Virus record (IMG/VR): IMGVR_UViG_2711768074_000001 | Direction: 5' to 3' (one strand) | From: a virus | Lineage: Duplodnaviria; Heunggongvirae; Uroviricota; Caudoviricetes | DNA: 4,468 nucleotides | Shown here: piece after piece, positions 494-4,468 of the stretch | How the letters are laid out: each line of letters opens with the position of its first letter | Numbering within the stretch: the first letter of the stretch is position 1 | Translations under genes and position numbers: made by a program | The notes under the pieces: generated by a model | Seen by the model: only the letters and a program-made list of their open reading frames with translations | Databases searched by the model: none | Told to the model about the DNA's origin: nothing

Positions 494-771
494 TAGCTAA
501 CCAACGAAGCTAAGGTTGGTAATTAAGGAGTTCTCCACGGGTGAGGTGGAGTGCGTGCGCCGGACATGGGTGAGCATCCGGCACTGACAGTTTACTGAAA
601 GGATATTTCCATGAAAAGTCAGACCATAACGCGAAAGCGCACGGCGAGGTAGCTGGTTCATAGATAGCCTGTCGTTAAATTTTCGTCGACCGTGCGCTTC
701 CGGTTGTGGCACTCCGCGAAATGGCGCGGCGGTAAGTATGGCGGGGTTATTCCTTCCCCGTTGAGGACACC

Positions 772-808
772 GGGTTGTCAGGTTGACCATACGCTTAAGC
801 GACAACCC
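772..808. repeat. 8-bp inverted repeat GGGTTGTC-N21-GACAACCC within the ORF-poor region; the loop contains the palindrome GCTTAAGC (793-800)
   Basis: 772-779 is the exact reverse complement of 801-808. The strongest of several potential hairpins in 494-1060. Confidence 0.4.
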
Positions 809-984
809 CGCTGCAACGCCCTCTGTTATCAATTTTCTGGTGACGTTTGGCGGTATCAGTTTTACTCCGTGACTGCTCTGCCGCCGTTTTTAAAGTGAAT
901 TTTGTGATGCGGTGAATGCGGCTGAGCGCACGCGGAACAGTTAAAACCAAAAACAGTGTTATGGGTGGATTCTCTGTATCCGGC

Positions 985-1029
985 GTTAATTGTTAACTGG
1001 TTAACGTCACCTGGAGGCACCAGGCACCA
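985..1029. promoter_or_regulatory. Candidate operator/regulatory block: three closely spaced GTTAAY hexamers (GTTAAT 985-990, GTTAAC 992-997, GTTAAC 1000-1005) followed by tandem heptamer GGCACCA x2 (1016-1029), about 30-75 bp upstream of ATG 1061
   Basis: Direct reading. GTTAAC is itself palindromic and 992-1005 forms a near-palindromic 14-mer. No convincing -35/-10 pair was found, so the regulatory role is inferred from repeat structure and position only. Confidence 0.3.
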
Positions 1030-1060
1030 CATCACAAAATTCATTGTTGAGGACGCGATA

Positions 1061-1529: not shown

Positions 1530-4001
1530 ATGAGTAAAGTCTTTATTTGCGCTGCTATTCCTGATGAACAGGCCATAAAAGAAGATAGCGCTGTTGCGGT
1601 GGCCACTGCCATTGAAGCTGGTGATGAGCGTCGCGCACGCGCAAAATTTCATTGGCAATTTCTGGAGCAATTCCCTGCAGCTCAGGACTGCGCTTATAAA
1701 TTTATTGTCTGTGAGGATAAACCCGGCATACCCCGCCCTGCCCTCGATTCCTGGGATGCTGAATATATGCAGGAAAACCGCTGGGATGAGGAGTCTGCTT
1801 CCTTTGTCCCGGTTGAGACTGAATCCGATCCGATGAACGTCACTTTTGACAAGCTGGCCCCTGAAGTACAGAACGCTGTCATGGTTAAGTTCGACACATG
1901 TGAAAACATCACCGTTGATATGGTTATTAGCGCACAGGAATTGTTGCAGGAAGACATGGCAACATTCGACGGACATATCGTTGAAGCGTTGATGAAAATG
2001 CCAGAAGTTAACGCCATGTATCCGGAGCTTAAGCTGCATGCCATCGGGTGGGTTAAGCATAAATGTAAGCCTGGTGCCAAATGGCCCGAAATTCAGGCAG
2101 AGATGCGCATCTGGAAAAAACGTCGCGAAGGTGAACGCAAGGAAACCGGAAAATACACGTCTGTTGTTGATCTCGCCCGCGCCAGAGTCAATCAACAGCA
2201 CACTGAAAATTCAACAGGAAAAATCAGCCTGGTCATTGCTGCCATTCATCGCGAATACAAGCAGACATGGAAAACACTGGATGACGAACTGGCCTACGCT
2301 CTCTGGCCTGGTGATGTGGATGCCGGAAACATTGACGGCAGCATCCATCGCTGGGCAAAAAATGAAGTTATCGACAACGACCGCGAAGACTGGAAGCGTA
2401 TCTCGACATCAATGCGCAAACAGCCTGATGCCCTTCGCTACGACCGCCAGACTATTTTTGGCCTTGTCCGTGAACGTCCGATCGACATTCACAAAGATCC
2501 CGTAGCACTGAACAAATATATCTGCGAATACCTGACGACAAAGGGCGTGTTTGAGAATGAAGAAACAGACCTGGGCACTGTTGATGTTCTCCAGTCATCA
2601 GAAACACAAACTGATGCAGTGGAAACTGAGGTATCTGATATCCCAAAAAATGAAACCGCGCCGGAAGCTGAACCATCTGTAGAGCGTGAGGGGCCGTTCT
2701 ACTTCCTCTTCACCGACAAGGATGGCGAAAAATACGGTCGCGCAAACAAACTTTCTGGTCTGGATAAGGCGCTGTCTGCTGGGGCTACTGAAATCACGAA
2801 AGAAGAATATTTCGCCCGCAAAAACGGTACATACTCAGGTTCACAACAAAATACTGGTGCATCTGACACGACCGCACAACCAGGGCCGGTAAAAGTTACC
2901 GCTGACGAAGTAAACAAAATTATGCAGGCAGCCAATATCAGCCAGCCTGACGCCGATAAGTTACTTGCTGTATCGCGTGGTGAATTTGTTGAGGGGATTA
3001 GCGCCCCTAATGATCCGAAATGGGTCAAGGGGATCCAGACTCGCGATTCTGTGAACCAGAACCAGCATGAATCGGAACGGAACTACCAAAAAGCGGAACA
3101 AAACAGCCCAAATGCGTTACAAAACGAGCCAGAAACGAAACAACCTGAACCAGTAGTGCAACAGGAACCGGAAAAGATCTGCACCGCCTGCGGTCAGAGC
3201 GGTGGCGGCAACTGCCCTGATTGTGGTGCGGTGATGGGTGACGCAACATACCAGGAAATATTCGATGGAGAGAATCAGCCTGAAGTTCAGGAAAATGATC
3301 CGGAGGAAATGGAAGGCACTGCGCATCAGCACAAGGAGAACACTGGCGGCAATCAGCATCATGCCAGCGATAGTGAAACTGGCGAGGCGTCAGATCCCTT
3401 AATTAAGGCGAACGGTCATCATAATCTCACATCCACCAGCAGAGCGGGGATTCATCTGATGATCGACCTTGAAACCATGGGAAAAAATCCCGATGCCCCG
3501 ATTATCTCAATAGGTGCAATATTTTTCGATCCGCAAACCGGAGATATGGGACCGGAATTTAGTAAGACTATCGATCTGGAAACTGCTGGCGGAGTCATTG
3601 ATCGGGACACCATTAAATGGTGGCTTAAACAATCACGCGAAGCGCAATCTGCCATTATGGCCGATGAAATCCCGTTAGATGATGCACTGTTACAATTGCG
3701 GGAATTTATCGACGAAAACTCCGGTGAATTTTTTGTTCATGTCTGGGGAAATGGAGCCAACTTCGACAACACGATTTTGCGCCGTTCATACGAACGGCAG
3801 GGGATCCCCTGCCCGTGGCGTTACTACAACGATCGCGATGTACGCACAATCGTTGAGCTGGGGAAAGCCATAGACTTCGATGCCAGAACGGCTATTCCAT
3901 TCGAAGGTGAGCGCCATAATGCACTTGATGACGCCCGTTACCAGGCAAAATACGTTTCAGCTATCTGGCAAAAACTGATCCCGAGTCAGGCTGATTTTTA
4001 A
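1530..4001 (+). CDS. Large prophage exonuclease (823 aa): long N-terminal region of unknown function, Q/E-rich linkers, Cys4 zinc-ribbon-like motif, and C-terminal DEDDh (DnaQ-like) 3'-5' exonuclease domain; possibly of the family annotated as exodeoxyribonuclease VIII (RecE)-like in enterobacterial prophages
   Basis: Single 2.47 kb ORF with SD TGAGG (1516-1520) 9 nt before ATG 1530. The C-terminal ~180 aa carry the three DEDDh motifs in canonical order: D646-x-E648 (MIDLETMG), D746 (GNGANFD), H796-x4-D801 (HNALDDARY). CxxC-x7-CxxC at residues 551-565. The central stretch ADKLLAVSRGEFVEGISAPNDPKWVKGIQTRD resembles what I recall of the non-catalytic part of Rac RecE (unverified). All antisense and alternative-frame ORFs inside it are treated as spurious. 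Confidence 0.9.
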   Translation: MSKVFICAAIPDEQAIKEDSAVAVATAIEAGDERRARAKFHWQFLEQFPAAQDCAYKFIVCEDKPGIPRPALDSWDAEYMQENRWDEESASFVPVETESDPMNVTFDKLAPEVQNAVMVKFDTCENITVDMVISAQELLQEDMATFDGHIVEALMKMPEVNAMYPELKLHAIGWVKHKCKPGAKWPEIQAEMRIWKKRREGERKETGKYTSVVDLARARVNQQHTENSTGKISLVIAAIHREYKQTWKTLDDELAYALWPGDVDAGNIDGSIHRWAKNEVIDNDREDWKRISTSMRKQPDALRYDRQTIFGLVRERPIDIHKDPVALNKYICEYLTTKGVFENEETDLGTVDVLQSSETQTDAVETEVSDIPKNETAPEAEPSVEREGPFYFLFTDKDGEKYGRANKLSGLDKALSAGATEITKEEYFARKNGTYSGSQQNTGASDTTAQPGPVKVTADEVNKIMQAANISQPDADKLLAVSRGEFVEGISAPNDPKWVKGIQTRDSVNQNQHESERNYQKAEQNSPNALQNEPETKQPEPVVQQEPEKICTACGQSGGGNCPDCGAVMGDATYQEIFDGENQPEVQENDPEEMEGTAHQHKENTGGNQHHASDSETGEASDPLIKANGHHNLTSTSRAGIHLMIDLETMGKNPDAPIISIGAIFFDPQTGDMGPEFSKTIDLETAGGVIDRDTIKWWLKQSREAQSAIMADEIPLDDALLQLREFIDENSGEFFVHVWGNGANFDNTILRRSYERQGIPCPWRYYNDRDVRTIVELGKAIDFDARTAIPFEGERHNALDDARYQAKYVSAIWQKLIPSQADF
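3447..4001 (+). other. DEDDh 3'-5' exonuclease domain (C-terminal domain of the 823-aa protein)
   Basis: Exo I DLET (codons at 3465-3473), Exo II NGANFD (3750-3767), Exo III HNALDD (3915-3932), spaced as in DnaQ-like exonucleases. Domain boundaries are approximate. Confidence 0.75.
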
Positions 4002-4059: not shown

Positions 4060-4263
4060 ATGAGCAGCTTATTTTTAACCGAAGATGAATTGCTAATATT
4101 AACGGGCTGCAAATATGCAAGCCACCAGCGAAAATGGTTAATGGAAAACGGGCTTCCGTTCTATACCAATCGTAGTGGCAAACCGATTGTCAGCCGGGAG
4201 CTATTTACCTGCAATAAAACTTTACCACCACGCGAGGTAGAGCCGAATTTTGGTGCGATCTGA
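4060..4263 (+). CDS. DUF4224-like small protein (67 aa), excisionase-like by position directly upstream of the integrase
   Basis: N-terminus MSSLFLTEDELLILTG...WLMENGLPF...GKPIVSRELF fits the pattern I recall for DUF4224 proteins found next to prophage integrases. The stop TGA (4261-4263) overlaps the integrase ATG (4263-4265). The SD is weak. Confidence 0.7.
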   Translation: MSSLFLTEDELLILTGCKYASHQRKWLMENGLPFYTNRSGKPIVSRELFTCNKTLPPREVEPNFGAI

Positions 4264-4457
4264 TGGGAAGACGAAGGAAAAATCCTGAACACGAAAAATT
4301 ACCTCCAAATGTATACCCAAATAAATATAGTTATGTATGGAAACCAACATCCAGAGAATCTGTAACACTAACCGCCGGTAATGACTCCAACTTATTGATA
4401 GTGTTTTATGTTCAGATAATGCCCGATGACTTTGTCATGCAGCTCCACCGATTTTGA
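4263..4457 (+). pseudogene. int: Phage tyrosine integrase, N-terminal fragment only; interrupted by IS1 after codon 38 (native part 4263-4376, then 26 IS1-encoded codons to a stop)
   Basis: MGRRRKNPEHEKLPPNVY... resembles the arm-binding N-terminus of lambda-family integrases (lambda Int begins MGRRRSHERRDLPPNLY, from memory). From 4377 the reading frame is inside the IS1 terminal sequence and terminates at TGA 4455-4457, whereas a full integrase is about 350-400 aa. Confidence 0.8.
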
Positions 4458-4468
4458 GAACGACAGCG
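4377..4468 (-). mobile_element. IS1 insertion sequence, terminal 92 bp (IRR end, element in inverted orientation, continues past the window edge)
   Basis: 4377-4468 (GGTAATGACTCCAACTTATTGATAGTGTTTTATGTTCAGATAATGCCCGATGACTTTGTCATGCAGCTCCACCGATTTTGAGAACGACAGCG) is the reverse complement of the IS1 right end as I remember it, including the ~23-bp terminal inverted repeat. Needs BLASTN confirmation. Confidence 0.9.
4392..4468 (-). CDS. insB: IS1 transposase InsB (InsAB'), C-terminal 24 codons (3' end of the gene; 5' part lies beyond the window)
   Basis: Minus-strand translation of 4466..4392 gives ...LSFSKSVELHDKVIGHYLNIKHYQ*, with the stop TAA at 4394-4392, matching the InsB C-terminus inside the IS1 right end. 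Confidence 0.85.
   Translation of the reverse strand, partial: LSFSKSVELHDKVIGHYLNIKHYQ

Follow-up and report, generated by a model that had tools for sequence, protein, structure and literature searches.

We believe that the 567-bp gap between ydfC and dicB in a Qin-like lambdoid prophage (positions 494-1060) is the dicF locus of the dicBF operon, together with the pathway by which the small RNA DicF is processed, and we put the probability of this reading at about 0.93. DicF, its precursor and the dicB leader are already known, and the region is real, non-coding and not an insertion. An apparently empty, hairpin-rich gap is explained here as a textbook prophage sRNA locus, and the added value of the analysis is that the documented RNase III and RNase E events can be assigned to specific stems.

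The window, that is, the whole stretch of DNA that was analysed (4,468 bp), corresponds to the early-left arm of a lambdoid prophage of the Qin type from E. coli or Shigella. The gene order was taken from the open reading frames, from Pfam and from the RefSeq annotation of a region 100% identical to the window. A ydfB-like ORF is followed by ydfC (275-493, + strand, 72 aa; the identical RefSeq gene carries this name, and the K-12 layout matches), by the gap and by dicB (1061-1249, + strand, 62 aa), which encodes a cell-division inhibitor and is recognised by RefSeq and, over its full length, by Pfam (PF05358 DicB, E = 1.7e-37). Downstream of dicB are a DUF1482/ydfD gene (1246-1437), a gene (1530-4001) whose 823-aa product carries an Rv2179c-like 3'-5' exoribonuclease domain at its C-terminus, a xis-like gene with DUF4224 (4060-4263) and, near the end of the window, the start of an integrase gene only. 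The 823-aa ORF is intact, its Pfam match is limited to the final ~180 residues, and the first ~640 residues have no Pfam family match. The integrase is interrupted: homology to intact integrases stops at 4376, and 4377-4468 is the end of an IS1, which matches thousands of places in E. coli genomes. The exact integrase/IS1 junction in one piece was absent from all complete genomes of the collection.

Identity of the gap

The first-pass annotation, made from the letters of the DNA, had described an ORF-poor gap that could hold a structured non-coding RNA, a termination or antitermination region of the early-left transcript, or an insertion. DicF, DicB and YdfC went unrecognised in it, but the structured RNA it suggested was the correct option, since the gap holds DicF (also annotated in K-12) and a structured precursor. 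The Rfam search that it had proposed found RF00039 at 835-886 on the + strand at 72.5 bits (gathering score 48, E = 3.4e-15), and the match covered the full model (positions 1-52 of 52). In K-12 MG1655, the interval between ydfC and dicB is likewise 567 bp long, with the annotated ncRNA dicF (b1574) 340 bp inside. The window and the K-12 interval are 98% identical with no indels, and dicF therefore maps to 834-886 (+ strand, 53 nt). Compared with the characterised K-12 DicF, its 5' and loop pairing regions included, 52 of the 53 bases are identical, and the sole change is the last base (G886 for C). The location between ydfC and dicB of a lambdoid prophage, given by PF05358 and by the RefSeq and K-12 layouts, is that of DicF. 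The hairpin 849-855/879-885 (-16.6 kcal/mol), which encloses an inner helix (857-861/871-875), is followed by TTTTT at 887-891, as in a Rho-independent terminator. Besides G886, the window copy carries two further private changes, C800 and A1029.

Studies have shown that the K-12 copy of DicF acts in trans with Hfq on the ftsZ, manX, xylR and pykA mRNAs. Both DicF and DicB act on the host, whose cell division they inhibit and whose metabolism they alter, and an intact copy in a less-decayed prophage therefore matters for the physiology of the strain. In the complete genomes that match best (e.g. L002, 6001-6567), RefSeq/PGAP leaves dicF without a feature, and among the records examined an ncRNA feature on dicF was found in K-12 only. 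It is for lack of RefSeq annotation that the gap looks empty, and we regard the unannotated dicF as an annotation gap and not a biological one.

Of 5426 complete E. coli genomes, 4726 contain the gap sequence, at a median of 2 places per genome, and 3517 have a match over at least 80% of the gap. Matches were also obtained in 77 deposited phage genomes (e.g. ON470583.1, PV340562.1 and LC567820.1), and in 19 of these at least 80% of the gap is covered. A 2016 paper reported no DicF or DicB matches in about 2000 phage genomes, which was read as survival of the operon in defective prophages only.

The gap exists as claimed and is poor in ORFs. In the ORF listing, the only + strand ORFs of at least 30 aa that cross it are 692-898 (68 aa, GTG start) and 956-1249, the latter being an in-frame upstream extension of dicB, and an antisense TTG-start ORF of 111 aa is present on the - strand (497-832). 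The two long ORFs, 692-898 and 497-832, had been judged not to be genes, and the judgement held: neither has a Pfam match, the curated K-12 record has no CDS in the matching interval, and neither frame stays open in relatives, with stop-to-stop lengths of 25-107 and 22-144 codons across 146 unique related loci. A 13-codon ORF at 611 with an SD-like AAGGA upstream was also rejected as a gene, since K-12 and most loci have CTG in place of its ATG.

Two other explanations of the gap were weighed against the dicF locus. That it is a decayed or frameshifted coding gene, or that one of the two long ORFs is real, might be supposed from some phage records, which annotate a "hypothetical protein" over the matching stretch. 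Besides the ORF evidence above, the substitutions are compensatory in the RNA helices, and the variable parts differ through indels and block replacement, so that we consider a coding origin extremely improbable. An insertion of mobile or recombined DNA between otherwise adjacent genes, as the first-pass annotation had also envisaged, is hardly more credible. The region is mosaic, with sub-segments that occur separately in other phages and a 5' part that exists in unrelated variants, but such mosaicism is the module exchange typical of lambdoid phages rather than a discrete insertion. The K-12 interval has the same length, the 3517 genomes matching over at least 80% carry the sequence as well, no terminal repeats or transposase are seen at the gap, and ydfC and dicB were adjacent in none of the DicF loci collected by the DicF core pattern. 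We therefore keep to the dicF locus as the identity of the gap.

The composition and folding of the gap agree in part with the earlier description. The part that had looked GC-richer by eye is so, with 58.7% GC at 676-825 against 48-50% upstream and 36-47% downstream. All five inverted repeats were found where they had been placed: 500-505/515-520, 559-564/577-582 and 772-779/801-808 were recovered by an inverted-repeat search, and 714-718/725-729 and 742-746/756-760 are helices of a covariation-supported structure. The 8-bp repeat had been singled out as the only notable one, but the documented functional stems are others, and the strongest structures had been overlooked, namely 849-855/879-885 with its T-run at 887-891, 632-644/690-702 and 896-914/1025-1043. 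The RNA fold of the whole gap had z = -5.37, and none of 100 shuffles was equally stable. The folding strength is uneven: 494-600, a segment with two of the five listed hairpins and a mosaic makeup among the loci, folds at shuffle level (z = -0.61). It belongs to a variable 5' spacer (494-624, + strand) with weak hairpins at 500-505/515-520, 533-538/546-551 and 559-564/577-582. Among the loci, the spacer variants show about 40%, 70-75%, 86-89% or >94% identity, and the part 523-595 was found alone in an unrelated phage. ARAGORN found no tRNA- or tmRNA-like elements in the window. Other Rfam families (AgvB, AsxR and so on), including the C4/CI antisense RNA (RF01695) and isrK (RF01394), had no window match at E up to 1; C4 and isrK RNAs do occur elsewhere in related loci.

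Processing of the DicF transcript and the dicB leader

Studies have shown that DicF of K-12 is made from a polycistronic transcript whose promoter, dicBp, lies upstream of ydfA and which crosses ydfABC, and that the operon has no internal promoter that could be found (PMC10448788). This agrees with our search of positions 1-1600 of the window, in which no promoter-like site was found on the + strand. DicF has been described as 3'-UTR-derived (PMC9438474), and ydfC is the gene named as its source. The K-12 transcripts either stop after dicF or continue into dicB-ydfD, and most of them terminate at the DicF hairpin and U-run (PMC10448788). The 53-nt DicF requires RNase E, and a 190-nt species is lost in the absence of RNase III and builds up upon RNase E inactivation (PMC10448788). 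Rho-independent termination sets the 3' end of the 53-nt form, and RNase III, acting on the full-length read-through RNA, sets that of a 72-nt form (PMC9438474, PMC5069750). The idea that the gap holds a termination region of the early-left transcript was thus partly right: the DicF hairpin with its T-run (887-891, + strand) terminates the ydfABC-dicF transcript and is leaky (PMC10448788, PMC9438474).

The RNase III and RNase E positions were carried over from the lengths of the K-12 species by arithmetic; Gordon 2017, which merely cites DicF, contains no direct RNase III cleavage coordinates. Because the 190-nt and 53-nt species share their 3' end, the RNase III cut is expected 137 nt upstream of 834, at ~696/697. 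It would fall in the 3' arm of a processing stem (625-708, + strand; arms 625-647 and 686-708) and create the 5' end of the 190-nt precursor. The stem contains the 13-nt repeat 632-644/690-702 found by the inverted-repeat search, has a fold z of -3.63 and keeps all of its 19 pairs in 38-40 of 40 distinct variants, and its apical part (648-685) is hypervariable. Among the related loci, the break between mosaic and conserved sequence at ~700 coincides with the 5' end of the precursor. The RNase E cut is predicted at 833/834, at the end of a U-rich single-stranded linker (818-833, + strand), and would give the 5' end of the 53-nt DicF. The annotated dicF start of K-12 maps to 834, and the linker reads AAU/UUU at 833/834, which fits the RNase E preference RN/WUU. 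A second RNase III cut may occur at ~905/906 in the 5' arm of the leader stem described below and produce the 72-nt DicF. The species lengths (190, 53 and 72 nt) place the RNase III ends inside the two longest stems, which were found independently. No compensatory changes were found in the two RNase III stems, where all changes are one-sided, the arms being too conserved.

The 3' arm of the processing stem (686-708) overlaps the 5' arm (703-710) of the outer stem of the scaffold that follows it. The two pairings are therefore mutually exclusive over 703-708, and we speculate that the RNase III cut at ~697 could free the scaffold arm and let the scaffold close.

Downstream of DicF, the 5' leader of dicB (887-1053, + strand) forms a long stem (887-914/1025-1053) of ~27 bp with a variable apical part. 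It contains the 19-nt inverted repeat 896-914/1025-1043 (95% complementary) and encloses conserved hairpins at 982-991/999-1008 and 1010-1014/1020-1024. The fold z of the leader stem is -4.97; its arms are conserved, and its apical part is hypervariable with indels. The only mismatch is C.A at 910/1029, where most loci have C-G and K-12 has U.G. Both this C910.A1029 and the private change C800 weaken predicted pairs in the window copy.

At the base of the leader stem, pairing is predicted from U887-A1053 through A893-U1047. The terminator U-tract (887-893) would thereby pair with UUGAGGA (1047-1053), which includes the dicB Shine-Dalgarno sequence GAGGA (1049-1053, + strand, 7 nt before the ATG), so that the ribosome-binding site of dicB is predicted to be sequestered in the read-through RNA. 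Cleavage by RNase III would split this RNA into the 72-nt DicF and a shortened dicB mRNA.

The scaffold and its exchangeable heads

Between the RNase III and RNase E sites lies a GC-rich scaffold of 115 nt with four helices (703-817, + strand). An outer helix (703-710/810-817) closes two hairpins (714-718/725-729 and 774-783/793-806) and a stem (730-733/769-772) that encloses the helix 742-746/756-760, and three of the five hairpins of the first-pass annotation are scaffold helices. The covariation analysis that had been named there as a check gave a positive result for 703-817. In an alignment of 19 non-redundant copies, 93.1% of the cells were paired, compared with 32-61% when the partners were slid. 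Eight pairs were changed on both sides, compared with 3.0 +/- 1.4 in shuffles, and none of 500 shuffles reached this number. RNAalifold also recovers the scaffold helices. C800 of the window copy breaks the A780-U800 pair; the 18 other representatives all have T at 800.

Related loci were gathered by sequence patterns of the DicF core and of the scaffold core. In almost all DicF loci, 703-1045 has an identity of at least 93-95%, and 494-702 occurs in several unrelated or diverged versions. The scaffold is more conserved in these loci than the coding sequence upstream, and with phage BLAST 703-825 was also found by itself in Stx2c-converting phages and P1. The scaffold has no Rfam family match, and no description of it was found in the literature searched, a search that stopped short of Faubladier 1990, Faubladier and Bouche 1994, and Murashko 2017.

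Lying between the two upstream cuts, the scaffold most likely serves as a folding and processing platform. It would mark the limits of the precursor and protect it, and by presenting the linker to RNase E it would give the released head a defined 5' end. A Salmonella locus has the DicF core but lacks the scaffold, which a DicF gene therefore does not strictly need. In this locus (L127, Salmonella enterica CP191473), the exact DicF core pattern is at 3663-3684 on the - strand, with neither the scaffold upstream nor the E. coli leader downstream; its flanks have 39-44% aligned identity, and the scaffold covariance model (R1) has no match.

What follows the scaffold is not always DicF. Among 126 unique scaffold loci, 82 carry the canonical DicF core. 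In the remaining 44, the core is replaced by one of at least ten other heads, each of which consists of a short single-stranded stretch, a hairpin and a T-run. On these alternative heads, the Rfam DicF model gave 30-39 bits for some, which is below the threshold, and no score for others. Of 133 unique loci, 131 have a stable hairpin with a T-run after the scaffold, and in 117 of these 131 the T-run is the start of a helix with a minimum of 15 bp (median 27 bp). A Stx2c-type locus with unrelated flanks has the same order of elements, with a fold z of -5.19. It is conceivable, although we hold this only tentatively, that Qin-, Stx2c- and P1-type temperate phages have a modular sRNA cassette in common and that DicF is one of its heads. 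Such a cassette would consist of an RNase III stem, the scaffold, an interchangeable head of seed plus terminator and a second long stem, and the job of the scaffold in it would be RNase E release, control of read-through or an action of its own. We see a modest and perhaps new lead in this combination of a conserved scaffold and exchangeable heads. If it is new, it offers a handle on phage sRNAs that are missed by sequence models of a single head.

Some loci deserve mention in their own right. In a Stx2c-converting phage (LC727877; L004, 2405-2860), the scaffold is followed by a 14-bp hairpin with a T-run and by a 25-bp stem. This element sits just 3' of a cI-like repressor gene and before yfdP/yfdQ-like genes, has no Rfam family match and may be an uncharacterised sRNA of Stx2c phages. 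Two viral contigs (L154, 4732-5348, - strand; L168, 750-1359, + strand) have five structured RNAs in a row within ~600 nt: the scaffold, a DicF-like head, an STnc100-like leader, isrK and a C4 antisense RNA.

Instead of serving DicF processing, the scaffold might have a function of its own, either as a cis-acting RNA that affects RNA polymerase or terminator read-through in the manner of put, or as a stable by-product of ~137 nt that binds a protein or RNA. We think this rather unlikely. Its conservation above that of the upstream coding sequence, its covariation and its retention while the downstream head is swapped for at least ten alternatives would all suit such a function. The put-like form was weighed because the scaffold is promoter-proximal in P1 and Stx2c-type phages and a terminator follows it, as in the 131 of 133 loci above. 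It immediately follows the C1-controlled ban promoters of P1 and lies ~350 nt after the repressor gene of the Stx2c-type phage, and these positions resemble those of HK022 putL and putR. In the window, however, it is ~800 nt from the promoter and behind three genes, and its four-helix junction is unlike the put RNA of HK022, which has about 70 nt and two stem-loops (PMC9378689). The identity as a put-like antiterminator was rejected, as model R1 had no match in the early region of HK022 (20000-31600; best 9.5 bits, E = 0.17). Moreover, processing is the sole explanation of the region in published work, where most transcripts are reported to end at DicF and neither termination nor read-through is linked to 703-817. 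The platform for folding and processing is thus the role that we prefer for the scaffold.

Comparison with known systems

Like putL and putR of HK022, the scaffold is a structured RNA in early operons of temperate phages and lies upstream of terminators. The annotated "dicF-like region" of P1 (AF234173, 68472-68573), in the leader of the ban operon, also contains the scaffold, which scores 93.3 bits with model R1, shows compensatory changes in two helices and is followed by a hairpin and T-run. The P1 head differs in that it has neither the DicF seed nor the DicF hairpin sequence and is not matched by the Rfam DicF model, and the region is followed by tRNA genes and not by dicB.

The dicB leader resembles STnc100/PasD. 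It aligns over the whole 206-position model and shares the outer stem, the motif GGUGAAU...GCG and the hairpin CACCxGGAGGCACCxGGCACC. The match to STnc100 (RF02076) at 884-1093 reached 35.3 bits (E = 3.6e-5), below the gathering score of 47, and we do not count the leader as a member. STnc100 proper is reported from different phage surroundings, such as a site 75 nt downstream of stx2 or beside Fels-1 genes. At most, the dicB leader may be a distant relative of STnc100/PasD that is used as an mRNA leader. Sub-threshold STnc100 matches (30-39 bits against 47) lie, besides that over the dicB leader, over like elements in P1 (upstream of tciA) and in other phage contigs (L003, 3842-3961; L154, 5002-5155; L168, 958-1090; L135, 5296-5444). 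P7 and D6 share 908-1031 of the window at about 80% identity.

CpxQ, SroC, SdhX and MicL are 3'-UTR or intra-operonic sRNAs with which DicF shares two properties: the terminator is shared with the upstream mRNA, and the 5' end is made by RNase E in a U-rich single strand beside a structured element (PMC9438474). Unlike these sRNAs, the DicF locus is cut by RNase III on both sides and has a 115-nt four-helix domain between its RNase III and RNase E sites. Its terminator is also leaky, and the U-tract is predicted to pair with the ribosome-binding site of the next gene.

The closest known system is the dicBF operon of K-12 Qin (RF00039, b1574), which shares with the window the gene order ydfC, gap, dicB and ydfD, the terminator hairpin and the stems upstream and downstream of it. 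The prophage in the window is less decayed than K-12 Qin. Where K-12 has the pseudogene ydfE, interrupted by IS2E, the window has the intact 823-aa exonuclease gene, and, in contrast to K-12 Qin, it keeps the xis-like gene and the start of the integrase up to the IS1 interruption at 4376/4377.
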